DNA from: Thermoflexales bacterium | GTDB lineage: Bacteria; Chloroflexota; Anaerolineae; Fen-1058 | NCBI GenBank assembly: GCA_041738395.1 | Contig: JBGSPW010000025.1 | Coordinates: forward strand, 4,100 to 68,099 | DNA length: 64,000 nucleotides | Direction of reading: 5' to 3' | Shown: positions 5,179-49,020 of the stretch, in pieces | How the letters are laid out: each line of letters opens with the position of its first letter | Position numbering within the stretch: the stretch's first letter is position 1 | Notes under the pieces: generated by a model | The model's input: only the letters and a program-made list of their open reading frames with translations | Databases searched by the model: none | What the model was told of the DNA's origin: nothing | Translations under genes and position numbers: made by a program

Positions 5179-5254
5179 GGCTCTGCTCCCAATAGTCACT
5201 CGTTCTTAAGCAGATTATAGCACGGCCAGCGTCGTGTGCATGGAAGGGGAATCG

Positions 5255-8454: not shown

Positions 8455-8780
8455 GCGGCGACTTCGCCCTGCAGGCCGAGCCAGCTGGTCAGCATGTCAC
8501 GGGCGATGCGCCAGTCCTGGGCGTCTTCTTCTTCCAGCATGACGGCCTGATTGAGCGCGACATTCGGCGCAGCCGTCAGGGTGGCCGAGCGCGATTTGAG
8601 ATAGGCGTCGAACTGGTCGTAAGTCATGCCGTACTTGGTGCGCAGCCGGTCATCAACCGCGCGATAGCGCTCGATCTGGCGCAGCACGTAGTCTTGCGCC
8701 ATTTCCGCGACGGCTTTTTCGGTCGAGGGGAATAGCCCGCGCCGCACAAAGGGCTGGACGATATCGGTTACGGTGTGCAT
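8451..8780 (-). CDS. small partner protein (putative antitoxin), analog of 4960..5178
   Basis: 109-aa ORF coupled to 8074..8454. KYGMTYDQFDAY ... EEEDAQDW resembles the other partner protein. Confidence 0.45.
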   Translation of the reverse strand: MHTVTDIVQPFVRRGLFPSTEKAVAEMAQDYVLRQIERYRAVDDRLRTKYGMTYDQFDAYLKSRSATLTAAPNVALNQAVMLEEEDAQDWRIARDMLTSWLGLQGEVAA

Positions 8781-8875
8781 TTTGGCTCCCGTGATTGACG
8801 ATGTACGACTATCGTGATTATACCATTCGAGCAGACTGGCCTGATCATTTGATTATGGAGTTGTCGATTGACTAA

Positions 8876-8948
8876 CCATCGAACCACCTTCACGACCATT
8901 CGCACCGAGGGGGCGATATTGCCCGCCGATCTTCTTCAGCGCATCGCC
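8876..8948 (+). pseudogene. orphan copy of codons ~4-28 of the drmMI-like methyltransferase gene
   Basis: 73 nt match 19876..19948 with 4 mismatches, and the last ~45 nt are identical. Would encode HRTTFTTIRTEGAILPADLLQRIA, then diverges into stops. Confidence 0.85.
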
Positions 8949-8980
8949 TGCTACAGTGGTGTGAGCAGCATGCCGAGCGA

Positions 8981-9325
8981 GTGTATTGGGGAAACGGCGC
9001 TAAAGACGGGTCATTCAATGCCATGCTAGGCTGGGACAGTGAGCATGCCGTCAATGTCTTTGGCGTGTGGACCTACGGGACAGTTGAGGTCGGTTTTCAG
9101 TATGCCAAAGTGTACCCGCCTTTTGATCAGGAAGAGAAGCGGCGCGAGTGGCTGAAACGGCTGAAGGGTATAGACGACAAGGCACTTTCAGCAGATTCCC
9201 TCAATCGCCGTCCCAATTTTCCGTTAGCCGCCTTGGCTGATGAAAAGAAGTTCCAACAGTTTGTCGAAACAATGGAATGGGTGATCAAACAACTGCAAAC
9301 CGCGCGTGATGCGAATGCTGGATGA
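8981..9325 (+). CDS. hypothetical protein (GTG start; possibly a gene fragment)
   Basis: 114-aa ORF directly after the methyltransferase remnant. No motif recognised. Confidence 0.3.
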   Translation: MYWGNGAKDGSFNAMLGWDSEHAVNVFGVWTYGTVEVGFQYAKVYPPFDQEEKRREWLKRLKGIDDKALSADSLNRRPNFPLAALADEKKFQQFVETMEWVIKQLQTARDANAG

Positions 9326-9341
9326 ACTGAGGAGAACATTG

Positions 9342-12317: not shown

Positions 12318-12401
12318 CTTCAGTGTGATTCTGTATCCACTCACTACACGCTCTTCAACGCAATATACCGAACAAGCCGCTCAAAACTGAGGGAAACCTG
12401 A

Positions 12402-15400
12402 ATGTCATCTTCGTCCTTTGACCAAGACAAAGAACTGGCCGAATTCTTTACCGACGTTGAGCACTTGCGCGAAGCGTTCAAGAATGCCGTCGCCGCACCA
12501 ACGCTGACGAAGCGACTGTTTGTCATTCACGGTGTTGGCGGGGTGGGCAAGTCGTCGCTGTTGCGGATGTTTCGCCTGCACTGCAGGAGCGTGAATGTCC
12601 CCGTCGCGCTCGCCTCGGGCGATGAAGCGAAGTCTGCCTTCGACATTCTGGCGCGCTGGACGGCCGATTTGAAGGTGGACGGCGTGTCGTTTTCGGCGTT
12701 CAGCAAGACGTTCGCGCATTACCGCGAAATTCAAGCCAAAGTAGATGCACAGGCGAAGAAGGCGGGTGGACGCGCGGCGGATATTGGCGGCAAGGCCGCC
12801 TCGAAAACGGCGGAAGCGGCCGGCGGTGCACTGGCAGGAGCGGCCATCGGCTCGATGATTCCTGGCGTCGGTACAGCAATTGGTGGTGCCCTGGGCGGTG
12901 TGCTGGGTGGGATGGGTGCGGAGGCATTGACGGACTGGCTGCGCGGATTTCTCAAACAACCGGACATCGATTTGCTTCTTGACCCGGCGAAGAAACTCAC
13001 CGACGATTTCCTAAACGACATTACCAAAGTCGCGGATAAGCGGCGCAGCGTGCTGATGCTCGACACGTTTGAACAGATGACGGCGCTTGAAGATTGGACG
13101 CGTGACGTTGCACAACGCTTGCATCCCAATGTGTTGTTCGTGATTGCAGGACGTGCCCTGCCGAACTGGAGCCGGGCGTGGGATAGTTGGCAAAAGCGCG
13201 CGTACATTGAAGAACTCAAGCCGATGACCGAAGACGTGATGCGCGAGTTGATTCAACGCTACTACGCGACGATGCGCGGCGGTGAACCAGCCCCCGCACA
13301 GGTTGAGGCGATTATCCGTTTTGCCCGCGGCTTGCCGATGGTCGTGACGAGCGCGGTACAGTTGTGGGTCAAGTATGGGGTCGAAGATTTTCAATCGGTT
13401 AAAACCGAAATCGTCGCCAATCTGGTGGATCGCATGACGGAAGGCGTTCCAAGTGCGTTGCTTCCCGCGCTCGAAGCGGCAGCCATTGTGCGCTGGTTTG
13501 ATCAACCAATTTTGCGGGCGGTATTGCAGCAAGACGATGTGCGCGATGCGTATAACGAGTTGCGACGCTTCCCGTTTGTACGCGTGCGCGTGGAAGGGTT
13601 GGCGTTGCACGACGCCGTGCGTGAGATTATGGATGAGAACCTGTGCGCACAAGATTCCGAACGCCACCGAGAAATGCACGAGCGTGCCGCGACCTATTTT
13701 GAAAAGCGGCTGGAAAAGGCAACAGGCGAAGAGGCCGAGCGACTTGGATTGGAACGATTGTATCATCGCGTCCGCGCAGATGAAGTGACAGGTATCAAAT
13801 TGTTTCAGGAGACGGCAGAGGAATTGGTGCGATCTCGTCTGATCAGTCGATTGCGCGCGTTGTTGAATAATGTTCGAATCGATTTGCTTGAACAAGAAAA
13901 TAGTAAACTATGGGTTGAATACTACAGTGCTCGTTTGCTACACTTGGAAGCCCAACGCGCTGATGCAGAAAAAGCATACCAATCCATCTACGAAAATAAT
14001 AACGCTGAAACTCGCTTGCGTGCGTATGCACTCTGCGATTGGGGAAGCATTCTAGAGAGAACAGCTTGGTTATCGAAACCCGGCGGCACAGAGAAGGCAA
14101 CGAACGTCTTGGAAAGAGCATTGACCATCTTATCCAATGAGGATCCCAAGACGGTTTCAGCTCTTCTAAGTCTGTGTGGAGTATATACGAGACTAGGGGA
14201 CTACGAACACGCGATTTATTATGGCAAAAAGGCAATTGAGTTTTCAGAGATACGTCAAGATAGCTATGCGTTGATATTAGCCCTGGAATCACTGCGATGG
14301 ATATATGTACTTAGCGGGGACTGGCAAAGCATGTTAGCAAATCAAGCCGCTGGAGAAAAATTGCTCACCAGTCATGGAAAAAGTCCCTACCTACTTGCCA
14401 GAGTAATTGGATCCTTCACAATTGGCTGTTCATGGGCAGGAAACTACTCTGAAAGTGAACGGAGATCTATAATCGCTCTTGGGGCATTTGAGGAGCTAAG
14501 TGCTCCCGCTACACTTAGCTATCTAAGAGAGCTAGCATATGCAGAAGGAATGCAGGATAAGTATGAAAAGGCTGACGAAAATTTCGGCAAAGCTCTTCAG
14601 GTTGCCAATCTTCTTGGCTACCAAAGAGAAAAAGTAACCCTGAGTTTTTGGGGCAGAATCCTCATCAGACAAGGAGCAGTGGAAAAAGCCAGAAACTTGC
14701 TAATTGAGAGTTACAACTCGGGACAGGAGTTGAAAGACCCTGGCGTGATGATAGAATCTCTGAATTGGCTTGCAGAAGTAGCTGAGATCGCTCATGATTG
14801 GCTGGATGCAGAAACGCAATACAATCGGGCACTTGAATTGCGAAGGACTCGCCGCTACTACTTCGAATGCGGTGCCCTCACAGGCTTCGTTCGCGTCAAG
14901 CACGCGCAAGATGACTTTGCCGCTATCCCACCACTCCTCGCGGAAGCAGAGCAACTGGCCCAGCAGTATGAGTACAACGACCATCTCGCGTCATTGCGGC
15001 TCACACAAGGGCATATCGCTTGGGAAGGCAAGGCGCCGACCTGGGACAACGGCTTCGAGGCGGCGCTGCATCTCTATCAACACGCGCTGATCTATGCCCT
15101 GCGCTACAACCGCTTTTTGCTGGATGAGGTGCTGTCGGGGCGATCGCAAGGAACACCACTGCGACCGATTATTCCGCATTGTCTAAAACGCGGCGAAGAA
15201 GGACGACAAATGCTGATCGCGTTGCGCGATTGGTGGCAGGCAGGCGTCAACGACATCGGCACGCCGCGCCCGGACACGATTTCGCCGATTCCCGAAGGCA
15301 TTCCGTTGCTGGAGGCAGAACACATCGCACGCGAACGTGAGCCGGGAGATGGTTCGCCGCAAAAGAGTGTGATTGAGCAGATTGAAGTAGCGTTGGGTTA

Positions 15401-15413
15401 TTCGGTAATCTGA
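12402..15413 (+). CDS. P-loop STAND-like NTPase with C-terminal TPR array (paralog A2)
   Basis: Same Walker A/B as A1. Glycine-zipper-like insert GSMIPGVGTAIGGALGGVLGGMG. N-terminal ~470 aa and C-terminal ~190 aa are highly similar to A1, while the centre is divergent. Confidence 0.75.
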   Translation: MSSSSFDQDKELAEFFTDVEHLREAFKNAVAAPTLTKRLFVIHGVGGVGKSSLLRMFRLHCRSVNVPVALASGDEAKSAFDILARWTADLKVDGVSFSAFSKTFAHYREIQAKVDAQAKKAGGRAADIGGKAASKTAEAAGGALAGAAIGSMIPGVGTAIGGALGGVLGGMGAEALTDWLRGFLKQPDIDLLLDPAKKLTDDFLNDITKVADKRRSVLMLDTFEQMTALEDWTRDVAQRLHPNVLFVIAGRALPNWSRAWDSWQKRAYIEELKPMTEDVMRELIQRYYATMRGGEPAPAQVEAIIRFARGLPMVVTSAVQLWVKYGVEDFQSVKTEIVANLVDRMTEGVPSALLPALEAAAIVRWFDQPILRAVLQQDDVRDAYNELRRFPFVRVRVEGLALHDAVREIMDENLCAQDSERHREMHERAATYFEKRLEKATGEEAERLGLERLYHRVRADEVTGIKLFQETAEELVRSRLISRLRALLNNVRIDLLEQENSKLWVEYYSARLLHLEAQRADAEKAYQSIYENNNAETRLRAYALCDWGSILERTAWLSKPGGTEKATNVLERALTILSNEDPKTVSALLSLCGVYTRLGDYEHAIYYGKKAIEFSEIRQDSYALILALESLRWIYVLSGDWQSMLANQAAGEKLLTSHGKSPYLLARVIGSFTIGCSWAGNYSESERRSIIALGAFEELSAPATLSYLRELAYAEGMQDKYEKADENFGKALQVANLLGYQREKVTLSFWGRILIRQGAVEKARNLLIESYNSGQELKDPGVMIESLNWLAEVAEIAHDWLDAETQYNRALELRRTRRYYFECGALTGFVRVKHAQDDFAAIPPLLAEAEQLAQQYEYNDHLASLRLTQGHIAWEGKAPTWDNGFEAALHLYQHALIYALRYNRFLLDEVLSGRSQGTPLRPIIPHCLKRGEEGRQMLIALRDWWQAGVNDIGTPRPDTISPIPEGIPLLEAEHIAREREPGDGSPQKSVIEQIEVALGYSVI

Positions 15414-15471
15414 ACTGTGGTTGCCGTTCGATACGCGGACTTTTGCAAGTACCTTCCTACGAGACAGATAG

Positions 15472-18400
15472 ATGACTACTTTATTTGACGCCGTCATCCC
15501 AAACCTTGTTGCCGAAGCTCTGATCCGTGCGGGCGATCATCTGTTTGGTTCTGCTATTCGTAAAGCGCTTGGTCGCTCAGAAGAGATTCGCTTGAAAGCG
15601 AGCATTGGAAGAGCACTGCATGAACTTGCCTCGGATTATGCACAACTGGAGCGCGCCGAAGGCCCTGCCTATATTCTTGATTCAAGGTTCTTTGAGGACA
15701 AAGCTGCGCGCACTGAACTTCTCAAGGTCTACAGACCTGATTTTATTTCGCGAGATGTGCTCGTCGCTCGCTATATTGAATTATACGGCTATGAGGACTT
15801 GGATAAGTTTCAGCGCAATTTGTCAGATTTCCTCCGAAATCTACATGAGATCAATTGGGAATTGTTGCCTCCGGGTGATCAATTTCAAACATCTTTCTTG
15901 ACGCGAGAAATACGTCAGCTGAGCGAACGAGTCGATAGCCTAATCTCAAATAATCAGACTGCCCAGCCTGCTTCTCCAACCCCATCCGCTGAGACCGCAA
16001 AGCCATCCGACATTTACACATTCTCCCGAAAAAGGGAAGTGCCAGATGCCATACAAGACGCTTTGACCACACTCACGTTGGCGGTACAAGAATCTTGGGC
16101 ACAGCCTGTTCCCCTTTATCGCGAGCTCGTTGAAGAAGAAACACAGCGCGAAATTGAAAAAGCGCGGAGTTTCCTGAAGCAGGGTGATATCAAAAGAGGA
16201 CATAGAATACTCTCTCATATCGAACAATCGAGGTCTAAGGTTCTTGATGATCTGCCTGCTGCAATTCGTTTCGATCTATTCCGACTTCTCGGCGCAGTGT
16301 ATCTGGTGCAGGGCGACATAGAGACGGCTGAATCCTATTTAAGGCGATCTGAAGTGGTATCGCCTGATGATTCGCGCTTAAACACTAACTGGGCCCAATT
16401 GCATCTCTTGAAACGTGAGTTTTTAGAGGCTGAGCGACTTGGTATAGAGGCTGAGCGAAGTGGCACTAATCGAGCTCAATCTATCGAAGTTGTGATTCAG
16501 GCAATGCTAGCCCAAAAGAAAGCGGAGGCTGCTCTAGCGTGGCTGGGGGACATAGATGTTGCCGAAGATCTTGAACATATCTATGTGTGTTGGGGACAAG
16601 TCTATTTTGCACTCGGTGATTTAGATGGAGCGCAGGAATATTTAGATAAGTCACTTGAACTGAAGCGCAATTATGCACCTGCGGATGCATTTATGGGCGA
16701 CGTTAAACTCGCCAAGTTGTACGAGCGTATCCGCAATTTCGCAGTACTCGAACAGGCTGACGATCTTCTTGACCAGGAATTACTGCAATCAATTGTGGCG
16801 CACTACACCAGCGCAATTAAGTCTTATGAGCATGCAGGGCTACTCGTACAAACAGAGGTAATTCACGTCAATCTTGCAAATGCGTTAAATCTCTTACGCA
16901 GGCCTAAAGAAGCCCTCGTACACATCAAAAAAGGACTTCGAAATTCCCCTCCCGTGCCTGAACCATGGCTGATAGCAGCAAGAGTCGCTCGCGATAGCGG
17001 TCAGATTGAATTGGCGGAGCACTGGTGTACTGAAGCCGCAAAACGCGCGCCAGATATCCCAGAGCCTTACTTTCAGCTTGCCGAAATTCGCTTAAGCCAG
17101 TCCAATACACAAGGCGCGCTAAGTGCTCTCAATCAAGCAGAAGCGATGTGCAAATCAGATCGTCATAAGACTGAGTTGGCGCTATTTCGTGCTGATGTAT
17201 ATAGCCAATGTGGAGACAGTGCGGGAATCCGCCAGGCCCTCGACTCAGTTCCTGAGGCGGCCCGTGATTCCTCTGATGTGATGTTAGCAGAGGCCGGGTG
17301 GTCCCGTCGCGCAGGCGATACTGATGGAGCTCAAACCATTCTTCTTAAGGCTGCGGAGAAATTTCCTGAGAATGTGAGTGTAGCAGCGTCAGCTGGGCGC
17401 TTTTTGTTATACGACAAGCAAAATCCAAAGGACGCAGTTCCCTTCCTACAGAAATGGGTAAAGTCTGCCCCTAGTAAAGTTAGCTATTTCCATCTAGCCC
17501 AATCTTTCTTTGGTTTAGGACATTATCAAGAAGCGCTGCGAGTCATTAATGAAGCTCGCTTGGCAAAGTGTGCAGATGATTACTTGCGGCGAATTGAAGG
17601 CGGCGCACTGTTAGGGCGGAAACGTTATCGTGAAGCTGTTCAAGTACTTGAGACAGTACCAATTGATAAAAGAGACTTTTCAAGCTGGTGCAATCTTGGG
17701 GCGGCCTGGCGATTGTTAGGTGATCGCGATCGAGCAATCGACGCGTATGAGAATGCATCTCGTATCAATGAAAAGCAACCGGAACTGTTTTTGACTTTGG
17801 CGGAGTTGTACCTACAACTTGAAGACAATGAGAATGCATATCACTATGCCCAAGCGGCATTGAAACTGGGGGAAGACGATCCTGACATTCACATGGGTTT
17901 CTTCCATACTGTTTTTGCCGCACAGCGCGAACGTGAGGCACTCCAAGTTCTGATGGAAATACCGAAACGATTTCCAGAATACACGGGACTGTATGCAGCG
18001 GGGTTAGACGAAGTCCGCCGCGTCTTTTCCGAAGGACAAATTCGCTCTCAACAGGCACTCAGCGAATATTTGGCAGGCCGTCTGCCGTTTACGATACTCT
18101 CGCTTTTGCTGAACTTGGCTACTGTTGAGCTATGGTTCGGATTTAGGCACGATGGGTTGAAGCAGCTATACGCTTCCGGCACACTTGAAGAACAGAGATC
18201 CGAAAGGAGTTTACTATCCAGTAGTGAGGTCGTCGTTGATTACACTGCATTATTGACGTCGCACGCACTAAACCTGCTTGAAGTATTACCATCGATCTTT
18301 GACAAGATATATATCCCTTCCACTGTGAGTTGGGCGATCATGTCAGATCGGGCACGGCTAATCCACACCCAACGTGAGCGCCTGAAAAGGCTGAAGGAAT

Positions 18401-19863
18401 TAAAGGAGTTCATTGGGAAATATCCACGCGTGACAATTCACTCTGATTGGGTAACCCCACCCGAACAATTCTTCGCAAATGATGGCGATCGCGCTGAAGC
18501 ACTCGACATGCAAGATATGATCTTGGTGAAGGAGTTCAATGCTGTATACGTGTGCGACAACGAGGCGAACTTCGCAGCGTTTGCCCGCTTAGTAGAGAGC
18601 CCAAGCGTTGGCAGTTGGGATATTTTGGAAGTACTAATTCGTGACGAGCTGCTAACTGTCGAGGAACAAGCCAAGGCCGCGCGTTATATGGCAGAGAATC
18701 GCTTAGTGCGGATTTCCCCTGAATATTTCCTCTCTCATGAGGATGAACTGGTACTGAGCTGGCATAGTCTGACCTCCTTATTCGAATGCGAGCCAAGTTT
18801 GCTGCGTGTGATTGCTGCACATTTTCGCCGAGTACACATCAGTCCAAGCACATGGGCCTTATTAGACAAAGACGCATTGCGCAGCGAAGTCATTGAACTG
18901 GCCATACCGGCACTAACTGAAATTGAAAACGCCCTGAAAACTAACGAGAAGTATGAAATTGTCTCTTCCGAAGAATTTGCCGAGAGGAACCTTGATTCCG
19001 AAGCGCAATTCAATCTCGCAAATCAAGTTCTCGACGCTATTGGCGTAGCTAAAGAGAAAGGCGTACCGCTTTGGACAGACGACTTGGTAGCTCGACGATT
19101 GGCTGCTAACGACAGTGCGGGACCAGCAACTATCTGTTCACGCGCAGTCCTCGACAAGACCCAGATTGAGCAAATATTAACGCCGCAGGCTTACTGTGAA
19201 AAAGTCTTTTTCTTGCTTTCAAATCAATACGAGTTTACTAGTATCAACTCTCTATTAGTGTATTGGCTGCTCGAACAGCATGGATTTCAAGACAATTCGG
19301 AAATCCAGCTCGTCTTGACAAAGTTAAACGAAACGGCAAAGCAAATCGTAGCTAATACATCAGCGGGTGATAGTCTCAAAGAATTTGGGCTCCATTTGAA
19401 CGAAGGCCTACATTCTTATTGGTCGGTTTTATCTACGGCGATTGCTTTGCTCTGGCTGATACCCACAGAAGTAAAGCCCAACATACGCAATCAATGGGCT
19501 AAAATCCTACTAGAGCAAAGTATGGAAGTGCAAAGTATTTTCCCATCAATGGATATCGTGATGATGCTAATCATTACTTCATATATGGACATTGTCTCGC
19601 GTCACAATCTTGATGCAGCACGTAAATATTACTCATTTGCTTGGACCTATTGCTGGCTTCGTGGTCTAGAGGAAGAATTCTATGACGGCCTGCTTACGAT
19701 GGTCCGTGCGTTTGAACAAGTAGATGTACCTGATGATTATCGAAGATCGTTTATTGCAGAGTTGCTACATTCGGTGAAAGGAAGGATTGCACCTGCGAAG
19801 ATCGCGCGATATATTATCCAGACCCACCCAGACTGGCTAACTACATCACCCAAAGATTCCTAA
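15472..19863 (+). CDS. 1463-aa TPR-repeat protein with unknown N-terminal domain and possible PIN-like C-terminal region
   Basis: Multiple TPR-like repeats (LGAVYLVQGDIETAESYLRRS etc.). C-terminal half has VVVDYTALL, YVCDNEA and PLWTDDLVARRLA, reminiscent of PIN acidic motifs. The stop TAA lies 1 nt before the drmMI ATG. Confidence 0.6.
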   Translation: MTTLFDAVIPNLVAEALIRAGDHLFGSAIRKALGRSEEIRLKASIGRALHELASDYAQLERAEGPAYILDSRFFEDKAARTELLKVYRPDFISRDVLVARYIELYGYEDLDKFQRNLSDFLRNLHEINWELLPPGDQFQTSFLTREIRQLSERVDSLISNNQTAQPASPTPSAETAKPSDIYTFSRKREVPDAIQDALTTLTLAVQESWAQPVPLYRELVEEETQREIEKARSFLKQGDIKRGHRILSHIEQSRSKVLDDLPAAIRFDLFRLLGAVYLVQGDIETAESYLRRSEVVSPDDSRLNTNWAQLHLLKREFLEAERLGIEAERSGTNRAQSIEVVIQAMLAQKKAEAALAWLGDIDVAEDLEHIYVCWGQVYFALGDLDGAQEYLDKSLELKRNYAPADAFMGDVKLAKLYERIRNFAVLEQADDLLDQELLQSIVAHYTSAIKSYEHAGLLVQTEVIHVNLANALNLLRRPKEALVHIKKGLRNSPPVPEPWLIAARVARDSGQIELAEHWCTEAAKRAPDIPEPYFQLAEIRLSQSNTQGALSALNQAEAMCKSDRHKTELALFRADVYSQCGDSAGIRQALDSVPEAARDSSDVMLAEAGWSRRAGDTDGAQTILLKAAEKFPENVSVAASAGRFLLYDKQNPKDAVPFLQKWVKSAPSKVSYFHLAQSFFGLGHYQEALRVINEARLAKCADDYLRRIEGGALLGRKRYREAVQVLETVPIDKRDFSSWCNLGAAWRLLGDRDRAIDAYENASRINEKQPELFLTLAELYLQLEDNENAYHYAQAALKLGEDDPDIHMGFFHTVFAAQREREALQVLMEIPKRFPEYTGLYAAGLDEVRRVFSEGQIRSQQALSEYLAGRLPFTILSLLLNLATVELWFGFRHDGLKQLYASGTLEEQRSERSLLSSSEVVVDYTALLTSHALNLLEVLPSIFDKIYIPSTVSWAIMSDRARLIHTQRERLKRLKELKEFIGKYPRVTIHSDWVTPPEQFFANDGDRAEALDMQDMILVKEFNAVYVCDNEANFAAFARLVESPSVGSWDILEVLIRDELLTVEEQAKAARYMAENRLVRISPEYFLSHEDELVLSWHSLTSLFECEPSLLRVIAAHFRRVHISPSTWALLDKDALRSEVIELAIPALTEIENALKTNEKYEIVSSEEFAERNLDSEAQFNLANQVLDAIGVAKEKGVPLWTDDLVARRLAANDSAGPATICSRAVLDKTQIEQILTPQAYCEKVFFLLSNQYEFTSINSLLVYWLLEQHGFQDNSEIQLVLTKLNETAKQIVANTSAGDSLKEFGLHLNEGLHSYWSVLSTAIALLWLIPTEVKPNIRNQWAKILLEQSMEVQSIFPSMDIVMMLIITSYMDIVSRHNLDAARKYYSFAWTYCWLRGLEEEFYDGLLTMVRAFEQVDVPDDYRRSFIAELLHSVKGRIAPAKIARYIIQTHPDWLTTSPKDS

Positions 19864-19864
19864 T

Positions 19865-22800
19865 ATGCCCACCCACCATCGATCCACCTTCACCACCATC
19901 CGTACCGAGGGGGCGATATTGCCCGCCGATCTTCTTCAGCGCATCGCCGAGGGGGATGCGACGCTGGGCGGGTTAACGCCGGAGGCGTATCACCTGGCGG
20001 CGGGCGAGAAGATTAACGAAGCTATCAACCGCGCGTGGAATCGTTGTCTGGGCGCGTGGGCGACGTTCCAATCGGCGGCGGCAAAGTTGCCGGAGAATGA
20101 TCTGGGTACGTCGATCACGCGCGAGCGCTGGCTGCTGCCACTGTTTCAGGAGTTGGGTTATGGCCGCCTCGTGCCTGCCAAGGCGATCGAGATTGCTGAA
20201 GGGGCGGGGTCACCCCGCCCGTACCCGATTTCGCACGGCTGGCAGAACACGCCGATCCATCTGGTGGGGCTGCAGGTCGATCTGGATCGGCGGACGCCGG
20301 GCGTGGCCGGGGCGTCGCGCAGCAGTCCGCATAGTCTGGTGCAGGAACTGCTGAATCGATCGAGCGAGCACCAATGGGGGATCGTGTCGAACGGGCTGCG
20401 GCTGCGCGTGCTGCGCGATAACGCGCGGTTGACGCGGCAGGCTTACGTGGAGTTCGATCTGCAGGCGATGATGGACGGGGAGGTGTACGCGGATTTCGCG
20501 CTGTTGTGGTTGGTGGGGCATCAATCGAGAGTGGAAGTTGGCCCCCCCTCTGTCCCCCCCGTCTTCGACAGGGGGGAGGAACGAGGACGCATCGACAGGC
20601 GAGAAGAATGCTGGCTTGAAAAGTGGATGAAGGCGGCGCAGGATCAGGGGACGCGGGCGCTCGATCAACTGCGCGGCGGTGTGGAGGCGGCGATTACGGC
20701 GCTGGGGACAGGCTTTATCGCGCCGACGAGCAATCGGGCGTTGAGGGAGAAGTTGCAATCGGGGTCATTGAGCGCGCAGGAGTTTTATCGGCAGTTGCAG
20801 CGCATGGTGTATCGATTGATCTTTTTGTTCACGGCCGAGGAGCGTGGCTTGCTGCTCGATCCCAAGGCCGCTGCGAGCGCGCAGGATCGCTATACGCGGT
20901 ATTACTCGATCGGGCGGCTGCGACGCCTGGCGGAACGCCGCAGCGGGACGCGACATGTCGATCTGTATCACGGCCTGCGGCTGGTGATGGATCATCTGGG
21001 CGGCGATGGGTGTCCTGAATTGGCGCTGCCGGCGCTGGGCAGTGATTTGTTCAACAACGAGTTCATCCGCGATCTGGAGGGTTGCGAGATCGCCAATCGG
21101 GCGGTGTTGGACGCGATCCGCGCGCTGGCTTTTATCCAGAGCAAGGGCGTGCGGCGGTTGATCGATTACAAGAACCTCGGCTCGCAGGAATGGGGCAGCG
21201 TGTATACGTCGCTGCTGGAACTGCATCCGATGTTGAATTTGGGCGCGGGCACGTTCGAGTTGCAGTCGGCGGCGGGCAATGAACGCAAGACGACGGGCTC
21301 GTATTACACCGAACCGGGGCTGGTGAATGAATTGGTCGAGAGCGCGCTGGAGCCGGTGATCGCCGATCGGTTGAGCCGCGCCCGTACGCGCGAAGAAAAA
21401 GAACGCGCGCTGTTGTCGATCAGGGTGCTCGATTCCGCGAGCGGCAGCGGTCACATGCTGCTGGCGGCCGGGCATCGACTGGCGCGCCATCTGGCGATCA
21501 TCCGATCGGGCGACGAGGAACCGTCGCCGGAAGCAATGCGTAAAGCGCTGCGGGATGTGATCGGCCACTGCCTGTACGGCGTGGACAGCAATCCGATGGC
21601 GGTGGAGTTGTGCAAGGTGAACCTGTGGATGGAGGCGCTGGAGCCGGGCAAGCCGCTGTCGTTTCTCGATCATCACATCAAGTGCGGCAACAGTTTGATC
21701 GGCGCGACGCCGGCGCTGCTGGCCGGGGGCATCCCCGATGAGGCCTTCACGCCGATCGCGGGCGACGACAAGGCGGTGTGCAGCGCGTTCAAGAAGAAGA
21801 ACAAGCAGGAACGCTCGGGCCAGCGCAGTCTGTTCGACGCGGCGCTGCAACCGTGGGAGCGCGTGGGCGACATCGCGGCGAGCCTGCTGCAGGTGGACGA
21901 ACTGGCCGACGATACGATCGAGGGCGTGCGCCGTAAGCAGGCGCGGTATGCGGAGGTGGTGCGATCGAGCGGCTACGAATACGGCCGCCTGTGGGCCGAT
22001 AGTTGGTGCGCGGCTTTTGTGTGGAAGAAGACGAAAGAGTTTCCATACCCGATTACGGAGGAGGTGTTCCGCCGCATCGAGCACAACCCGTTCGACCTCG
22101 CGCCGTGGATGCGGGAAGAGATCGAGCGACTGGCGGGGCAGTATCAGTTCTTTCATTGGCATTTGGAGTTTCCAGAAATATTTGGCCCCCTTCCCGGCCT
22201 TTCCCCGTCGGAAAAAGCGCCGACAGGGGAAGGAGCAGGCGGGTTTGATGTGTTGTTGAGCAATCCGCCGTGGGAAAAAATCAAACTTCAAGAAGAAGAG
22301 TTCTTCGCGGCGCGTGATCCGCGGATTGCGACTGCACCGAATACGGCCGCACGCCAGAGACTGATCGCTGTGTTATCAAAGACAAATCCTGCACTAGCGC
22401 TTGAACTATCCGAAGCGAAACGTGCTACCGAAGGCGTAAGCAAGTTCGTTCGATTAAGCGAGCGCTACCCATTGACAGGCATTGGCGATGTAAATACATA
22501 TGCGCTGTTTGCAGAGCTTGATCGCAGTTTGATTGCATCGAATGGCCGCACTGGCATCATCTTGCCAACAGGCATTGTCACGGATGACACTACCAAAGAT
22601 TTCTTTGGTGACGTGATGGCGAATCAAGCCTTGGTAAAGTTGATTGGCTTTGAAAACGAGTCATTCATCTTTCCAAATGTTCATCATTCATTTAAGTTCT
22701 GTGCTGTCACAATAACCGGTCAACAATCAAGGCTCGAACGTGCAGACTTCGTTTTCTTTTGCCGTCACTTCGAGAATGTCAAACAAGCGGAGCGACATTT

Positions 22801-23899
22801 TGAATTGTCGCGTGAAGACCTTGTTCTGCTGAATCCCAATACTCGCACATGCCCAATTTTTCGGACTCGCGTCGACTCTGAATTGACCAAGAAGATATAT
22901 CGTCGTGTGCCGGTATTGGTGAATGACCATTCAGATGCTAATCCTTGGAGCCTAACACTCCTGCGATTATTCGACATGTCGAACGACAGTGGTTTATTCG
23001 CTTCAGAGTCACAAAATGGCTATGTTCCGCTTTATGAAGCAAAGCTTATTCACCAGTTTGATCACCGATATGCTACCTATGAAGGTGCGCTGCAGGCGAA
23101 TTTGAACTCGGGCATACTGCCACAGGCATCCTACAAGCAGAAGCAAGATGCCAATTTCTCAGCCTTGCCTCGATACTGGGTACCAATTAATGAAGTTGAA
23201 ACGAGACTAAAGACGTGGCGGCATTCTTGGTTGCTAGGATTTCGTCGAATAACAAGCAGCGTGGTTGAACACACCATGATAGCCTGCCTGTTTCCGAGAG
23301 TGGGAGCAAGCGATGTCTTGCCAGTGTGTCTTTCTGATGGCGTGGAGATTACACTGCTATCTTGCTTGCTGGCAAACTTTAACTCAGTCTGTTTCGACTA
23401 TGTGGCACGCCAAAAAGTTGGTGGCACCCATATGGATTTCCATTACCTAAAGCAACTCCCTGCCCTGCCGCCGTCGGCCTACACGGCGGCGGACATCGAC
23501 TACATCGCGCCGCGGGTGCTGGAGTTGGTCTACACCGCGTGGGATTTGAAGCCGTTCGCGGAGGACATGGGCTATCACGGCGAACCGTTCAAGTGGGATA
23601 CGGATCGCCGCGCGCAATTGCGGGCGGAACTCGACGCGTATTATGCGCGGCTGTACGGGTTAAGTCGGGATGAACTGCGGTACGTGCTCGATCCACAGGA
23701 GGTGTATGGTTCGGACTTTCCGGGGGAGACGTTCCGCGTGCTGAAGGAGAAGGAGATGAAAGCGTACGGGGAGTTTCGGACGAGGAGACTCGTGCTGGAG
23801 AAGTGGGATGTAGGTGAACACCTTCAATTGGTTTTATTAGCAACGGATGGCAAAGATAGTAAAGGCATGACTGAAGATTCGCCATTGCGTTCAATTTAG
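19865..23899 (+). CDS. drmMI: large Eco57I/type IIG-like N6-adenine DNA methyltransferase, DISARM DrmMI-like
   Basis: Motif I VLDSASGSGHML, YGVDSNPMAVELCKVNLW, motif IV LLSNPPWEKIK. 1344 aa. Lies next to helicase/DUF1998 and SNF2 genes. Confidence 0.7.
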   Translation: MPTHHRSTFTTIRTEGAILPADLLQRIAEGDATLGGLTPEAYHLAAGEKINEAINRAWNRCLGAWATFQSAAAKLPENDLGTSITRERWLLPLFQELGYGRLVPAKAIEIAEGAGSPRPYPISHGWQNTPIHLVGLQVDLDRRTPGVAGASRSSPHSLVQELLNRSSEHQWGIVSNGLRLRVLRDNARLTRQAYVEFDLQAMMDGEVYADFALLWLVGHQSRVEVGPPSVPPVFDRGEERGRIDRREECWLEKWMKAAQDQGTRALDQLRGGVEAAITALGTGFIAPTSNRALREKLQSGSLSAQEFYRQLQRMVYRLIFLFTAEERGLLLDPKAAASAQDRYTRYYSIGRLRRLAERRSGTRHVDLYHGLRLVMDHLGGDGCPELALPALGSDLFNNEFIRDLEGCEIANRAVLDAIRALAFIQSKGVRRLIDYKNLGSQEWGSVYTSLLELHPMLNLGAGTFELQSAAGNERKTTGSYYTEPGLVNELVESALEPVIADRLSRARTREEKERALLSIRVLDSASGSGHMLLAAGHRLARHLAIIRSGDEEPSPEAMRKALRDVIGHCLYGVDSNPMAVELCKVNLWMEALEPGKPLSFLDHHIKCGNSLIGATPALLAGGIPDEAFTPIAGDDKAVCSAFKKKNKQERSGQRSLFDAALQPWERVGDIAASLLQVDELADDTIEGVRRKQARYAEVVRSSGYEYGRLWADSWCAAFVWKKTKEFPYPITEEVFRRIEHNPFDLAPWMREEIERLAGQYQFFHWHLEFPEIFGPLPGLSPSEKAPTGEGAGGFDVLLSNPPWEKIKLQEEEFFAARDPRIATAPNTAARQRLIAVLSKTNPALALELSEAKRATEGVSKFVRLSERYPLTGIGDVNTYALFAELDRSLIASNGRTGIILPTGIVTDDTTKDFFGDVMANQALVKLIGFENESFIFPNVHHSFKFCAVTITGQQSRLERADFVFFCRHFENVKQAERHFELSREDLVLLNPNTRTCPIFRTRVDSELTKKIYRRVPVLVNDHSDANPWSLTLLRLFDMSNDSGLFASESQNGYVPLYEAKLIHQFDHRYATYEGALQANLNSGILPQASYKQKQDANFSALPRYWVPINEVETRLKTWRHSWLLGFRRITSSVVEHTMIACLFPRVGASDVLPVCLSDGVEITLLSCLLANFNSVCFDYVARQKVGGTHMDFHYLKQLPALPPSAYTAADIDYIAPRVLELVYTAWDLKPFAEDMGYHGEPFKWDTDRRAQLRAELDAYYARLYGLSRDELRYVLDPQEVYGSDFPGETFRVLKEKEMKAYGEFRTRRLVLEKWDVGEHLQLVLLATDGKDSKGMTEDSPLRSI

Positions 23900-23961
23900 T
23901 ATAGTGGCACTTACGTTTGAGCGCACTTTTCACTGCGGGGAGAACAATTAGGAGCATTAAC

Positions 23962-25518
23962 ATGTTTTCTGCACTGCGCAATCTGTATCGTAGTCGCAAA
24001 CGATGTCTAAAACTGCTGATAGTTTTGGCTTCCATATTTGCTTTCCTTCAACCTCACGTCATCAACGCACAGATTCTTCCAATCCTGCTGACACAAATGA
24101 ATCAGGCAATTCAAGAATGGCCGCAACCTGGTCGGACCGGGCAAAGACTAGCGGCTACTTCTGAACTAATTTTGCCGCCACTTACGCCGCGCTGGACCGT
24201 CACTTTTCCTAGTGGTGGATTGACAGATTATGGGCCAATCACTATCGCAGTCCACGACAAGATCTTTGTCGTTCTTCGTAGTGGTGATTCGACTCGGAGC
24301 CTGGTAGCGCTAGATGCTGAAACAGGTAGTGAGGTATGGTCAAAAGGGTTCGTCGACAATCGAAGTTTTGACTATGTGGGCTACGACGAAACCACGGATC
24401 GACTGTATGCCTCAACTGCGACCGATGTCTTTGTGTTTAATCCGGAGACCGGCAATATCCTTAACCAGTATCCGGTCCCGGTATGGTGTGGTTGGACACG
24501 CTTTGCGATTGTGGACGGCAATCTGTACTTAGTTGCCTGTGCTCGACTCTCGCGCATCGATGAAAACGGCAATGTACTCTGGACTAATACAGATCCCTAT
24601 TTCCCAAATGGCGGCTTCGGTACGCCAACCGTATATGACGGCATAGTCTACGTAGGCTCGAATAGTTGGACGATTCAAGCGATTGATGCCAATACCGGGC
24701 AGATGATCTGGCAAGCGCCTACGAATGGCGGACCTTATACTGCGCCAATCGCCGCTGATGGTCTAATTATGGTTGGTTGCCAAGGACAAGGATCAGGTAG
24801 TCAGACTGTACTTGCATGGGATGCACATACCGGGCAGCCCAAATGGGGAGTAGTCACTGGATATGGTGGAACGATAGATACACCTATGAGTTATTACGAT
24901 GGTGTGTTGTACTTTGGCTCCGCCGATCAAACAGTATATGCAATTGATACGCGGGCGCCGAGGATGCTGTGGGCGACTGAGACACCGAGCGATATTGCAA
25001 GCCCCGTCGTCTACATGGGAGGACTCGTATATGCAATATCGGGTGGGACCCTAAGGGCGTTTGATTCACAAACTGGCGAGGCCGTTTATGAGCAAAATGT
25101 AGATGGCTGGGGTAACCTCGTGCCATACAAAGGTATGCTGATCATGTCTCGTCGAGATTGGCTACAATCTCTTGACTCCCATCCTGGTATTCGACTGAAA
25201 GTTAATCCACCTTTTCAGATTGCAATACCAGGTGAACAGACGCGATTATATCTTGACCTTCAGTCAACCTACAATTTCACGGAGACTTTGCAAATCTCGA
25301 GCAGCAACACCCCGGATGGTATCTCAATTGACATTGCACCGCTAGCAGGCGTTGGCTCTCAGAGGATAACGACAACGGTGACACTTTCACCTACGATCTC
25401 TACCTCTGGTTTCATTAGCCTAACTTTTACAGCTAGTTCGACTTCAACATTGCAGATGACAACGGCTGTGCTCTTCGTTGCAAAGTCTCGTATCTTCCTG
25501 CCATGGATCACGAAGTAA
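23962..25518 (+). CDS. secreted/lipid-anchored PQQ-like (BamB-type) beta-propeller repeat protein
   Basis: N-terminal hydrophobic signal CLKLLIVLASIFAFLQP. Repeated DG.(V/L)Y(V/F)GS...(Y/L)A(I/W)D..TG...W blades. AGGAG SD precedes the ATG at 23962. Low-GC segment. Confidence 0.65.
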   Translation: MFSALRNLYRSRKRCLKLLIVLASIFAFLQPHVINAQILPILLTQMNQAIQEWPQPGRTGQRLAATSELILPPLTPRWTVTFPSGGLTDYGPITIAVHDKIFVVLRSGDSTRSLVALDAETGSEVWSKGFVDNRSFDYVGYDETTDRLYASTATDVFVFNPETGNILNQYPVPVWCGWTRFAIVDGNLYLVACARLSRIDENGNVLWTNTDPYFPNGGFGTPTVYDGIVYVGSNSWTIQAIDANTGQMIWQAPTNGGPYTAPIAADGLIMVGCQGQGSGSQTVLAWDAHTGQPKWGVVTGYGGTIDTPMSYYDGVLYFGSADQTVYAIDTRAPRMLWATETPSDIASPVVYMGGLVYAISGGTLRAFDSQTGEAVYEQNVDGWGNLVPYKGMLIMSRRDWLQSLDSHPGIRLKVNPPFQIAIPGEQTRLYLDLQSTYNFTETLQISSSNTPDGISIDIAPLAGVGSQRITTTVTLSPTISTSGFISLTFTASSTSTLQMTTAVLFVAKSRIFLPWITK

Positions 25519-25584
25519 TGGAACTTTGCCCAGATTTGATCCCGGTAACGCCGTGGCAGGCCGTCCACGAGATGTTGACCCACG

Positions 25585-25736
25585 ACGTGCTCGATCCGCA
25601 GGAGGTGTATGGCTCGGACTTTCCGGGGGAGACGTTCCGCGTGCTGACGAAGTCCCCATCTTTTGGGGGAAGGAGAAGGAGTTGAAGGCGTACGGGGAGT
25701 TTCGGACGAGGAGATTGGTGTTGGAGAAGTGGGATG
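25585..25736 (+). pseudogene. orphan copy 2 of the drmMI 3' end, interrupted by a 22-nt hairpin insert
   Basis: Matches 23686..23810 (VLDPQEVYGSDFPGETFRVL / KE(M/L)KAYGEFRTRRLVLEKWD) with extra cgaagtccccatcttttggggg at 25648..25669. Confidence 0.85.
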
Positions 25737-25822
25737 AGATGGACGGATGAAGGATGAGGGATGAAGGATGAAGCGGATGGCGGGACGACTTGTAGCACAG
25801 CAGCGAGATAAGTGAGGCAGAG

Positions 25823-27922
25823 ATGACGGATCAACCTCAAAGGCAACAGCCTGAACCCGAGAATTCGGTCGCCAATGTCAGCGGTGGGGTAAACATTGAG
25901 GCCAATCGTGATGTCAATACCGGTGGCGATGCGGTGGGGCGGGATAAGATCGTTCACATCGAGCACTACCATGAAGGTGGTGAAGCGGTTCCGAACAAGC
26001 CGAAGGTCTATCACAATCTGCCGCAGCCAGATTACACGCGCTTCGTTGGGCGCGCGGAGGAGTTGGCCTGGTTACGTGAACGTCTGTCGCCTGAGGATCA
26101 GGCCTGGCAGATTGCCATCACTGGTATCGGAGGAGTTGGGAAGAGTGCGTTGGCGCAGGCAACGGCTCATTTCTATTTTAAGCAATACGACGAATTGCCT
26201 GTGGACGAACGCTTTGAAGCCATTGTGTGGGTTTCTGCAAAGGAAGAGGTTCTTACGGCTGAGGGTAGAGAAGATGCTTCCTTACCCGGTACGATTTTGC
26301 GGACGTTGGAAGACATCTACATTGCAATTGCCCAAACGATGGAACGTGAGGACATCACACTGGCCACGGCACACAATCAATTCGATCTCGTATTGAAAGC
26401 ATTGCGCAAGAACCGCACCTTGCTTGTCATTGACAATTTCGAGAGCGTAAACGACCGTCGCGTTAAGGCTTTCCTGCGCAATTTACCCACACCCACCAAA
26501 GCATTAATCACCTCGCGTGAGTGGCTAGATGTTGTTAACACGTTGGAACTAAAGCGCTTGCCAGATAACGAGGCCGGCAAATTGATTGTGGGAGAAGTAG
26601 CGGGGTGGCATTTGGCCTTGAAGGGGCCTCAACAGCAAATGCTGCACGACTTGACGTCAGGCCTTCCTCTGGCAATCAGACTTAGCATTGCACGATTGGC
26701 AAGTGGCGAGAGGTTTGAGGCGGTAGTCCATTGGCTGAACGATGCTACGGGCGATGTGCCAGAGTACTGTGTGCAAGGACAGGTCGATTTAGCCAACCGA
26801 CGTGATCCTAACACTTTGCCCCTACTACTAGCCTGTTCACTATTTGACCGAACAGCGGGCGGCTCTCGCGACGCACTCCGACAGATCACCAATCTTTCAG
26901 TGTTGGACTGCGACGAAAGCCTCGCCAGATTGCAGCGCCTCTTTCTGCTCAACCGAAATGACGACGATCGTTTTTGGGAGTTGCCTATCACGCAAAGATA
27001 CGCTCACGCACAGTTTGCGAAAGTAGATAGTGACCAACTTGTAGAGCGTTGGATCGCCTGGCTATTAAACTTCGCCGCTACATATGGCCTCGACTTGGAG
27101 CTGCATGTTGAGCAGGCACATCTATTAGCTCCAGAATATCCCAATGCGCGCAGCGCCATTAGCTGGTGCTACGAGCACCAAAGATGGGAAACTCTATTGC
27201 AACTGGCAGAATGTATATGGTATTTCCCCTTCCTCACTTGTCTGTACATCGATTTGCAGGAAATCTTGGACGCTGCTGTTGAATCTGCAAAGATTCTAGG
27301 AGCTAAGCAGGAGGAAGGTCGATGGGAATGTCGGCTCGGGCGGTTGGATTGGGTCCGGGGACAGGGCGACGATGTTGTGGTGCCACATCTTGACAGAGCC
27401 GAAGAGATGGCACGTCAATTCCACGATATGGCTGAGTTGGGCCGTGTTTTGCACTTTCGTTCGGCCCTGTTGCGCCGTCAAGGAAAATTGCCAGAGGCTA
27501 TTCAGCTAGCTCAAGCCATGTTTGAAATCGGCAAACAAATTCAAGACGTGGAATTGAAGGTGTTTGCAGCGCATCGATTGTCGGCATTTGCCTGCGAGCA
27601 GAAACGTTTCGAAGAAGCCCTGTGTTTGCTAGCCGATGCTGAGGAATGGGCGCGAGAAGGCCATTGGTCACGAGGATTAGCGTGGACTTTGTATCATCGC
27701 GGCAACACCCTAATTCAGCAGGAAGCGTTTGAAGATGCTGAGCCCTCGCTCGTACAGAGCCTGGAGATGGCAATTTCATGGGGCGAGCGGCGCTTGATAG
27801 CCTACAACAAACATTGCCTGGCTAAAGTCTACTGTGCGGCCAATAGAACTGGGATGGCCTCCCGAGCGGCGGCGGAGGCGCAAGATTTGTTTGAACGATT
27901 GGGAATTGACCAATCTTCATAA
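25823..27922 (+). CDS. NB-ARC-type STAND NTPase with C-terminal TPR repeats
   Basis: P-loop ITGIGGVGKSALA, Walker B TLLVIDNFESV, RNBS-B-like KALITSREW, GLPLAIRL motif. TPR-like C-terminus. G/N/V-rich N-terminal 45 aa. Confidence 0.75.
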   Translation: MTDQPQRQQPEPENSVANVSGGVNIEANRDVNTGGDAVGRDKIVHIEHYHEGGEAVPNKPKVYHNLPQPDYTRFVGRAEELAWLRERLSPEDQAWQIAITGIGGVGKSALAQATAHFYFKQYDELPVDERFEAIVWVSAKEEVLTAEGREDASLPGTILRTLEDIYIAIAQTMEREDITLATAHNQFDLVLKALRKNRTLLVIDNFESVNDRRVKAFLRNLPTPTKALITSREWLDVVNTLELKRLPDNEAGKLIVGEVAGWHLALKGPQQQMLHDLTSGLPLAIRLSIARLASGERFEAVVHWLNDATGDVPEYCVQGQVDLANRRDPNTLPLLLACSLFDRTAGGSRDALRQITNLSVLDCDESLARLQRLFLLNRNDDDRFWELPITQRYAHAQFAKVDSDQLVERWIAWLLNFAATYGLDLELHVEQAHLLAPEYPNARSAISWCYEHQRWETLLQLAECIWYFPFLTCLYIDLQEILDAAVESAKILGAKQEEGRWECRLGRLDWVRGQGDDVVVPHLDRAEEMARQFHDMAELGRVLHFRSALLRRQGKLPEAIQLAQAMFEIGKQIQDVELKVFAAHRLSAFACEQKRFEEALCLLADAEEWAREGHWSRGLAWTLYHRGNTLIQQEAFEDAEPSLVQSLEMAISWGERRLIAYNKHCLAKVYCAANRTGMASRAAAEAQDLFERLGIDQSS

Positions 27923-27932
27923 ATGTCGTCAA

Positions 27933-28123
27933 GCGGGATGAACGCGGTACGTGCTCGATCCGCAGGAAGTGTATGGCTCGGATTTTCCGGGGGAGACGTT
28001 CCGCGTGCTGACGAAGTCCCCGTCTTTCGCCCAGCGCGTCCCCGGCACATAGTGCTCCCTTCGGCAGGGTGTGGGGGAATGGAGAAGGAGTTGAAGGCGT
28101 ACGGGGAGTTTGGGGCGCGGTAG
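27933..28123 (+). pseudogene. orphan copy 3 of the drmMI 3' end, interrupted by a 66-nt insert
   Basis: gcgggatgaacgcggtacgtgctcgatccgcagga... matches 23665.. onward. Insert at 28012..28077. Homology is lost after ggggagttt (about 28110). Confidence 0.85.
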
Positions 28124-35231: not shown

Positions 35232-35345
35232 GGTGTTTTCTCCGATCAGCACAGACACTGGCCGGACATGGAACAATCCCCATCCTCTGGTGGGATGGTG
35301 CCAATCCCAGCACTTGAGGACAACTGGAATTGTCGGGGACTACGA

Positions 35346-35463
35346 GGTAGATACAGGGTGAGGCACGTGGTGAGCAGCAGAGGAACAACCGCGCTGCTCA
35401 AGGTAGATGCAGACTCAATACTCATCAAAGAGGATGAGCAATGAGAACGAAAGAATGAAGGGG
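35346..35463 (-). repeat. structured intergenic element, copy A
   Basis: GGTAGATACAGGGTGAGGCACGTGGTGA box + hairpin GAGCAGC/GCTGCTC + GGTAGATGCAG box + hairpin CTCATC/GATGAG. Homologous to 47111.., 49021.. and 57899... Confidence 0.8.
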
Positions 35464-47009: not shown

Positions 47010-47110
47010 AGGTCCTCCTGTTCAGTGACATGGTGTTTTGTTGGTCGATGACGATCGGGATCGTCGGCATGGTGTTGGTCGAAAAGTGGAACGATTTCGA
47101 CCGCAACAGA

Positions 47111-48872: not shown

Positions 48873-49020
48873 GGTGTGTTCTCCTGGAACATGGTATTGA
48901 GTGACGGCAAACGGCCGCCGCGCACTGCATCGAGAGCATGGTGTTGACTGCGGTGATCGCTTGACCACCGGACATGGCGCGGACGGCAGGCGGGGAGGCG
49001 CTGCCGACCAAACAACCAGA

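Follow-up and report, generated by a model that had tools for sequence, protein, structure and literature searches.

Relics of a methylase 3' end separate successive cargo genes at an ARMADA type I-like defence locus of a Thermoflexales bacterium

The stretch of 64,000 nucleotides (nt) analysed here as a whole (the window) derives from contig JBGSPW010000025.1 of a Thermoflexales bacterium and carries, at 19865-23899, the gene for an N6-adenine DNA methylase which is followed by an array of partial copies of its own 3' end alternating with other genes. A direct-repeat search of 22-30 kb recovered the methylase 3' end in three direct copies, and the repeated unit is the last ~145 nt of the conserved methylase coding sequence. 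The methylase and the array consist of the following features.

19865-23899, plus strand: N6-adenine methylase (ArmB-like) of 1344 amino acids (aa); Pfam Eco57I/N6_Mtase, best PADLOC model DrmMI (7.5e-62)
22400-23400, plus strand: variable segment within the methylase with low GC content (0.41-0.50) between flanks of 0.60-0.70, from the composition profile
23665-23810, plus strand: repeat copy 1, the functional, intact methylase 3' end (…ETFRVLKEKEMKAYGEFRTRRLVLEKWD), from the direct-repeat search and a 25-nt core
23811-23899, plus strand: 29-codon read-through tail without homologue, the left junction of cassette 1 (relatives stop 4-6 codons past WD)
23962-25518, plus strand: cargo of cassette 1, a PQQ/BamB-like beta-propeller with an N-terminal hydrophobic segment; Pfam PQQ_2, 3.9e-26
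25585-25750, plus strand: repeat copy 2, a relic of the 3' end that keeps 23 nt of a palindromic insertion (~25648-25670) as well as the ancestral stop (…LEKWDEMDG*)
25751-25822, plus strand: purine-rich native 3' untranslated region (UTR) with a GTAGCACAGCAGCGAGA motif, conserved behind relics in the related loci L084 and L085 and contiguous with the NB-ARC gene
25823-27922, plus strand: cargo of cassette 2, an NB-ARC/TPR STAND NTPase; Pfam NB-ARC, TPR_12, nSTAND1
27933-28120, plus strand: repeat copy 3, a relic with a long palindromic insertion (~68 nt, ~28012-28080), truncated on its right side at 28120

The 25-nt core CCGGGGGAGACGTTCCGCGTGCTGA of the repeat occurs exactly three times in the 64 kb and was not matched in 100 shuffles. 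Copy 1 reads as unbroken coding sequence (…DPQEVYGSDFPGETFRVLKEKEMKAYGEFRTRRLVLEKWD) inside the 1344-aa open reading frame (ORF). Identity between copies 2 and 3 reaches 96% in the left part, as against ~81% in register between each of them and copy 1. Directly after GTGCTGA, both are interrupted by an insertion of 23 nt (copy 2) or ~68 nt (copy 3), which breaks the reading frame and thus marks them as non-coding relics. The repeat match of copy 2 extends over 25585-25736, from where the sequence runs on to its natural stop at 25750, and copy 1 diverges immediately past GGGATG into its 29-codon, low-GC tail; as the protein of this subtype normally ends 4-6 codons past WD, the tail marks an insertion junction. 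An Rfam search of 23-29 kb found no known RNA family, even at E = 1, the 64-kb window holds no tRNA or tmRNA as a potential target, and scanning the plus strand of the array for promoters and terminators gave nothing beyond chance. The three direct copies, as well as the propeller and NB-ARC/TPR genes between them, had already been described in a first-pass annotation made from the sequence alone; the direct-repeat search and the core count bear out the former, the Pfam matches the latter.

Repeats of ~150 nt can mislead short-read assemblers, and a repeat expansion or a chimeric join might in principle mimic such an array. However, the copies are 81-96% identical with distinct indels, and a unitig of an independent short-read assembly (Logan SRR28170473_518417) covers 25673-28013 of the window at 100% identity, ending inside copies 2 and 3. 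In addition, the same architecture is found in five distinct related assemblies. As the independent unitig agrees without mismatch, the repeats are real, and collapse or expansion during assembly, which the annotation had named as fatal to its own reading, is hardly credible as an explanation.

The close relatives were collected by protein search, with methylases 66-79% identical to that of the window, and comprise five distinct loci with DNA: L084, L085, L086, L088-90 and L091 (identical to L083). Within the methylase gene, homology conserved among relatives covers residues 1-1315 and stops at 23809. Nucleotide homology to L084/L085 breaks at 22611/23082 and resumes at 23355/23452; the low-GC segment 22400-23400 coincides with this gap and is probably a swapped target-recognition region. 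Composition is mosaic: GC is host-like at ~0.60, drops to ~0.47-0.53 at 9-20 kb and 23.8-28 kb, and is 0.60-0.70 in the methylase save for the 1-kb internal stretch.

The methylase belongs to an operon with two helicase genes.

9-4577, plus strand: YprA-family helicase (ArmC-like), N-terminus cut by the window start, with DUF1998/MZB; Pfam Helicase_C, MZB, DUF559
5234-8077, plus strand: SNF2/BrxHII-like helicase (ArmA/DrmD-like); Pfam SNF2-rel_dom, Helicase_C, PADLOC DpdE/DrmD

The order of these genes, 9-4577 (YprA), 5234-8077 (SNF2) and 19865-23899 (methylase), is the same in the relatives. PADLOC identifies DISARM-type components, namely a DrmMI-type N6-adenine methylase and a DrmD SNF2 helicase (2.6e-82, with DpdE scoring higher), while the best matches of ORF 9-4577 are DruE models (1e-66), with DrmA at 1e-9. 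Residues 1414-1495 of the latter ORF give a weak DUF559 (Vsr-like) match with E = 4.7e-4 and 20.4 bits against a cutoff of 20.6 bits. Class 1 DISARM (drmD, drmMI, drmA, drmB, drmC) fits less well, since separate DrmA and DrmB are absent and the helicase and MZB/DUF1998 share one ORF; a PLD domain, as expected for the DrmC nuclease, was not found among the tested window ORFs. In the passages that define ARMADA type I, a YprA-like helicase with DUF1998 and a Vsr-type domain is followed by a BrxHII-like SNF2 helicase and a PglX-like methylase (bioRxiv 10.1101/2025.09.15.676423; PMC13463889), and this is the succession of a YprA homologue, a BrxHII-like SNF2 helicase and a PglX-like methylase found in the window. 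As judged from the fusion of the helicase with DUF1998, the DruE-like score, the lack of a PLD gene and the gene order, the architecture appears to fit ARMADA type I better than class 1 DISARM. The first-pass annotation called the gene drmMI, which is also the name of the best PADLOC model; a more fitting description of the protein is an ArmB-like methylase within an ARMADA type I-like system. Unlike in ARMADA type I as those passages describe it, extra genes lie here between armA and armB and after armB; relic arrays or cargo at the methylase ends are not mentioned in the searched passages of the two papers. Small gene pairs on the minus strand (4568-5199 and 8080-8780) are wedged among the ARMADA genes; the first pair has a counterpart in L091, a TumE-family toxin-antitoxin-like pair with 93-99% identity.

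In all five distinct close relatives, unrelated cargo genes are separated by relics of the methylase 3'-end repeat.

L084: 4 relics; 175-aa protein, DRT UG13a reverse transcriptase, an IS21-disrupted NB-ARC gene with a TPR protein, 241-aa protein, NB-ARC
L085: at least 5 relics; Ymh-like protein, 350-aa protein, AbiU, NAGPA and SH3, PifA, 157-aa protein
L086: 2 relics; 388-aa protein, followed by the decayed remains of an earlier methylase C-terminal extension
L088 (L088-90): 2 relics; 326-aa and 114-aa proteins
L091 (= L083): 1-2 relics; 93-aa protein

In the closest relatives (L085, L088, L091) the YprA and SNF2 neighbours are 91-95% identical to those of the window at the amino acid level, with 94% for ORF 9-4577 and its L091 homologue and 91-95% for the SNF2 gene in all three, and the cargo is unrelated between the genomes. 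The proposed recombination hotspot at the methylase 3' end, with one acquisition after another, is thereby supported, as relics of one type enclose differing cargo between flanks of 91-95% identity; comparison of related genomes for each cassette had been suggested along with it. Among the relatives' cargo PADLOC recognises DRT UG13a (3e-86), AbiU (2e-33) and PifA (6e-75). The two cargo proteins of the window gave no PADLOC matches, so that the propeller and the NB-ARC protein are putative defence proteins by domain type; the nearest homologues of the propeller are just 43-45% identical.

A scan of metagenome DNA with the 25-nt core returned one contig, L083, identical to L091, in which the 3' half of the methylase has been replaced by a foreign allele of another subfamily together with the 93-aa ORF. 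Behind these lies a relic of the old type, and it carries the same 23-nt insertion as window copy 2. In L088 and in P0004 (74% identical), the latter read from its gene table, housekeeping genes follow the array, and an integrase is missing.

More distant methylases, 43-59% identical, were compared in 80 genome loci, and in none of them does the match to the query extend past residue 1315, where the last base of copy 1 falls. Some of these distant loci from other phyla (L001, L005, L019 and L038) carry independent relics of their own 3' ends, at the following positions.

L001: 17616-17770 and 18825-18965
L005: 13002-13259 and 13925-14182
L019: 7963-8094
L038: 13886-14026 and 14634-14729

In these comparisons the phenomenon recurs across phyla, while being universal in this clade only. 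The distant relics bracket small genes such as those for a pentapeptide-repeat protein, a DUF3368 protein and unknowns, and one of them is split by a 1-kb insertion. In-frame C-terminal extensions past the conserved WD/YD motif were also encountered, a 233-aa unknown domain in L088 (10001-15403) and a Peptidase_S24-like domain in L038 (10004-14608); therefore displaced material can be fused to the protein.

Tandem accretion at the 3' end of a gene is a familiar process, as with phage 21 and e14 in icd and with tycheposons. The first-pass annotation had accordingly read the cassettes as integrative elements with att-like sites, possibly mobilised in trans, and the minus-strand region from 28.1 kb as the third. 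In its explicit form, this explanation holds that small site-specific elements accreted in tandem, the attP of which mimics the methylase 3' end, so that the repeats would be attL, hybrid att and attR sites, with the integrase lost and mobilisation in trans as in cis-mobilisable elements (CIMEs) or tycheposons. Indeed, like in tandem integrative elements such as CIMEs and ssrA islands, direct 3'-end repeats separate successive, co-oriented and gene-sized cargo, and here as there the anchor gene stays intact because the first copy is complete. The repeats are also conserved past neutral expectation, a short stretch around GAGATGAAGGCG is common to all copies, the downstream 36-kb element has its far end outside the view, and ssrA-targeting islands in Dehalococcoides provide a Chloroflexi precedent (PMC3146451). 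The details of the repeats speak another language. Tandem integrative elements share a fixed crossover core and possess an integrase in one element or more, and their repeats are usually short (16-20 nt) or exact, whereas here both boundaries differ from copy to copy, the left ones varying over ~140 nt and the right ones falling at no fewer than three different points: directly after GGGATG, past the purine-rich UTR or past the GTAGCACRGCAGCGARA motif.

Indel markers common to the copies and genomes (L, M, H and R) provide a second criterion. These are an 8-nt insertion near the left end, an insertion of 5-6 nt in front of GGGAGACG, the palindromic insertion after GCTGA and a 7-8-nt insertion after TACGGGGA. 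The marker pairs L/H, L/M and H/R each show all four combinations, and therefore exchanges occurred at several positions inside the repeat; the recombinant markers imply crossovers in at least three intervals instead of one core. Such reassortment is typical of homologous recombination or gene conversion, and one fixed crossover core does not behave in this way. Neither integrase nor transposase domains were detected in the window ORFs tested (at least 200 aa at 28-64 kb, plus the plus-strand genes), and in the related loci none but one IS21 (istA/istB), which interrupts a cassette of L084; resolvase domains and tyrosine and serine recombinases are equally missing from these ORFs and loci, including the arrays of P0004 and L088 that end in housekeeping genes.

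Furthermore, the relics are contiguous with their downstream neighbour. Relic, UTR and the first 210 nt of the NB-ARC gene are conserved as one block three times, at window copy 2 and in L084 at 8022-8466 and 14230-14678. In L086, the relic and the next ORF (15184-16167) are colinear with residues 1496-1795 of the 1800-aa L088 methylase with 59-62% identity and in-frame stops, a stretch which takes in the 230-aa C-terminal extension of that protein. The L086 segment is thus a displaced and decayed former methylase C-terminus, with an entire domain of the protein displaced. Given the variable boundaries, the recombined markers, the missing integrase and this contiguity, the reading as att-bounded elements mobilised in trans is not supported as the account of the array; accretion by site-specific recombination is, in our view, unlikely, albeit to be taken seriously.

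The same features bear on an integron-like arrangement, in which the repeats would serve as attC sites and fold as single strands for recombination by an IntI-type integrase, the gene of which would lie at another place. Like integron arrays, the locus combines a compact gene with a ~150-nt repeat in uniform orientation and grows beside a fixed anchor, and the nearest homologue of the propeller cargo sits in what looks like a genuine attC-type array. Unlike integrons, the repeats are plainly homologous to coding sequence and imprecise in their boundaries, possess neither attC structure nor R''/R' boxes and, folded as single-stranded DNA on both strands, are no better than shuffled sequences (z -1.1 to +0.7). 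None of the loci has an intI gene next to the array, and it is always the methylase that precedes the first cassette, which largely refutes the integron explanation and leaves it very improbable. The attC-type array mentioned is contig L092, where the propeller homologue (45%) lies beside a TIR gene and small ORFs; the repeats at 1561-1677, 2162-2257 and 3060-3177 are ~100-118-nt imperfect palindromes which resemble genuine integron attC sites.

Two further mechanisms of variation were tried and rejected. A diversity-generating retroelement does not fit because the differences between the copies are A/G and T/C transitions and indels and not adenine-specific, and a reverse transcriptase domain is absent from the tested window ORFs. 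The search for inverted copies of the gene or its end, as in a shufflon or another inversion system, came out empty. Methylase shufflons have been described for DrmMI-like, PglX and Eco57I-type enzymes, with inverted partial copies of the variable region and an adjacent invertase (PMC9881135). They concern the same gene family, and in both situations partial copies beside the methylase diversify the locus; here, however, direct copies bracket foreign genes, and of the methylase they contain only the ~50 conserved codons at the C-terminus.

The array is best explained as the fossil record of repeated 3'-end displacement at the methylase of an ARMADA type I-like operon. That homologous recombination drove this displacement once rare illegitimate joins had seeded it, in the manner of the orphan arrays of Rhs/CdiA, is somewhat more probable than its alternatives taken together. 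Synonymous divergence is consistent with exchange of methylase DNA. In a comparison of SNF2 5234-8077 with methylase 19865-22300 against L085, L088 and L091, fourfold-degenerate sites were 0.66-0.72 identical in the adjacent SNF2 gene and 0.85-0.86 in the methylase (0.85-0.89 over the conserved methylase parts), and therefore methylase DNA has been exchanged or homogenised more recently than that of its operon partners.

In the course of displacement by homologous recombination, incoming DNA from related strains would carry the 3' part of a methylase, a foreign gene and a relic of the methylase end. With ordinary RecA-type recombination, the left crossover would take place in the conserved methylase body or 3' end, while on the right the donor relic would pair with the functional 3' end of the recipient, and such crossovers would place the new cargo beside the methylase. 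The old gene end, its 3' UTR and the following gene would be pushed downstream, the gene end as a non-coding relic. Relics could subsequently act as portable homology arms by which cassettes are gained, lost through relic-relic deletion or moved between genomes without a dedicated recombinase. The first junction of each cargo would require rare illegitimate, microhomology-mediated joining. RecA dependence and co-transcription of the cargo from the methylase promoter may be presumed on this scheme; the propeller cassette would be the newest, the NB-ARC gene would be older and would once have stood directly behind the methylase, and the low-GC recognition segment may have come in with the propeller cassette.

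This scheme has its closest counterpart in the cdiA-CT/cdiI and rhs-CT arrays, in which a full-length gene is followed by ordered fragments with varying 3' lengths, each heading a variable module. The CdiA/Rhs orphan fragments differ in how much of the conserved region they keep, and what is an orphan in one strain forms the end of the complete gene in another (Poole et al., 2011, PMC3150448). Likewise, the orphan of L086 matches the full-length gene end in L088, and L083/L091 keeps a relic of the old type behind its new allele. In both systems modules are exchanged between genomes, and recombination at the conserved stretch is the proposed driver, without a dedicated recombinase. The anchor here, in contrast, is a defence DNA methylase and not a secreted toxin, and the cargo consists mostly of complete, independent genes (STAND NTPases, DRT, AbiU, PifA, the propeller) and not of in-frame toxin tips with immunity genes. 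Unlike in Rhs/CdiA, the relic usually keeps its native stop codon and 3' UTR, and the methylase 5' end shows the same phenomenon.

That 5' counterpart lies 11 kb upstream of the methylase, at the left border of a low-GC region.

8862-8948, plus strand: relic of the methylase 5' end (first ~27 codons)
8949-19864, plus strand: upstream low-GC cargo (GC 0.47-0.53), from Pfam, composition and paralogy
8981-9325, plus strand: 3' fragment of a 387-aa gene
9306-12317 and 12402-15413, plus strand: two tandem paralogous AAA_16-TPR STAND genes
15472-19863, plus strand: TPR-PIN gene, homologues of which lie directly upstream of the methylase in L088 and L091

Over 74 nt, 8875-8948 is 95% identical to 19875-19948. 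The 5' relic is fused into the interior of the 387-aa gene, which is intact in L088 (3281-4444), at a GCGCxxCGCC microhomology with 8 of 10 nt, and its junction is a scar of illegitimate recombination. The two AAA_16-TPR STAND genes share 61% aa identity, with 83-87% nucleotide identity in 300-nt stretches.

Several points weigh against displacement by homologous recombination as the full account. All relic left ends fall in the last ~260 nt of a 3.9-kb gene, usually 0-150 nt past the preceding stop, which is tidier than random illegitimate joining predicts and leaves some targeting or selection unexplained. The relics are more conserved than neutral sites, which could mark them as functional sites of recombination. 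With the far end of the 36-kb element and the remainder of each genome outside the view, a recombinase may act in trans. Finally, the whole case is a comparative one, and excision or integration events were not observed.

The conservation of the relics is the main attraction of a two-arm landing pad under selection, where relics and palindromic insertion are kept as recombination or transcription signals and the array reflects adaptive capture of defence genes and not passive debris. Across genomes the relics are 92-96% identical, while neutral sites of the same genomes are ~30% diverged, the cargo includes the known single-gene defences DRT UG13a, AbiU and PifA, and four of the six loci including the window share the same palindromic insertion at the same site. 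At ~62-68 nt it is long in window copy 3 (28012-28080) and in L088 (17388-17455), and it is cut to 23-24 nt at window 25648-25670, at L084 5974 and 14294 and at L091 14546. A strong fold (-22.9 kcal/mol, z = -4.5) is predicted in L088 only; in the window, the palindrome has decayed, with z = -0.4 in copy 3 and a stem of 5 bp in copy 2. Since a promoter or terminator signal over chance is missing as well, and recent horizontal transfer together with gene conversion by the functional copy can explain the conservation equally well, we consider the selected landing pad improbable. A dispersed miniature inverted-repeat transposable element (MITE) was rejected as the origin of the insertion, as no copies were found outside relics in the window or in 93 loci; the most plausible reading is that one relic received the insertion once, long ago, and that it was later copied along with the cassettes.

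A bolder version, which we regard as speculative and distinctly unlikely, takes the methylase 3' end and its relics as a selected, recombinase-independent gene-capture platform, a 'homologous-recombination integron' that stockpiles single-gene anti-phage systems under the methylase operon, to be swapped as cassettes among related strains, or else supposes an undiscovered recombinase that recognises the site. On such a platform the conserved relic, and perhaps its palindromic insertion, would be a functional recombination or expression signal. If either variant were true, it would amount to a general, previously unrecognised way in which defence islands build around ARMADA-, DISARM- and BREX-type methylases.

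How defence islands come about is an open question, and most accounts rely on integrases, on transposons or on hotspots bordered by core genes. Displacement by homologous recombination would offer a different route, with the methylase end and its relics serving as portable homology arms that stack whole defence genes in ordered arrays, in parallel to the C-terminal displacement of Rhs/CdiA, yet with complete genes as its modules and with the anchor gene affected at its 5' as well as its 3' end. The relics would give a readable order of acquisition, and they predict cassette exchange between related strains by RecA alone. As a simple signature, a methylase-end relic may moreover help to find uncharacterised defence genes near ARMADA-, DISARM- and BREX-type methylases.

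Downstream of copy 3, the window continues into one more region.

28121-64000, minus strand: conjugative-element-like region with helicase, DUF6094 methylase, MoxR-vWA, DUF6744, RadC, ParB and SSB genes (Pfam) and host-like GC

Its earlier designation as a third cassette is not borne out, and no further repeat bounds it anywhere in the window. A further copy is also absent from another 1.27 kb past the 64-kb window, and homologues of 28.1-36 kb are missing from the related loci, so that the boundaries of the element are undefined. An intergenic repeat family (GAGGTAGATACAGGGTGAGGCACGTG…), with up to 99% identity over 68 nt, occurs at 35337-35462, 47102-47197, 49012-49108 and 57890-58004; it is scattered through the conjugative-element-like region, where it may be a shared regulatory element, and a Logan unitig breaks at one of its copies.

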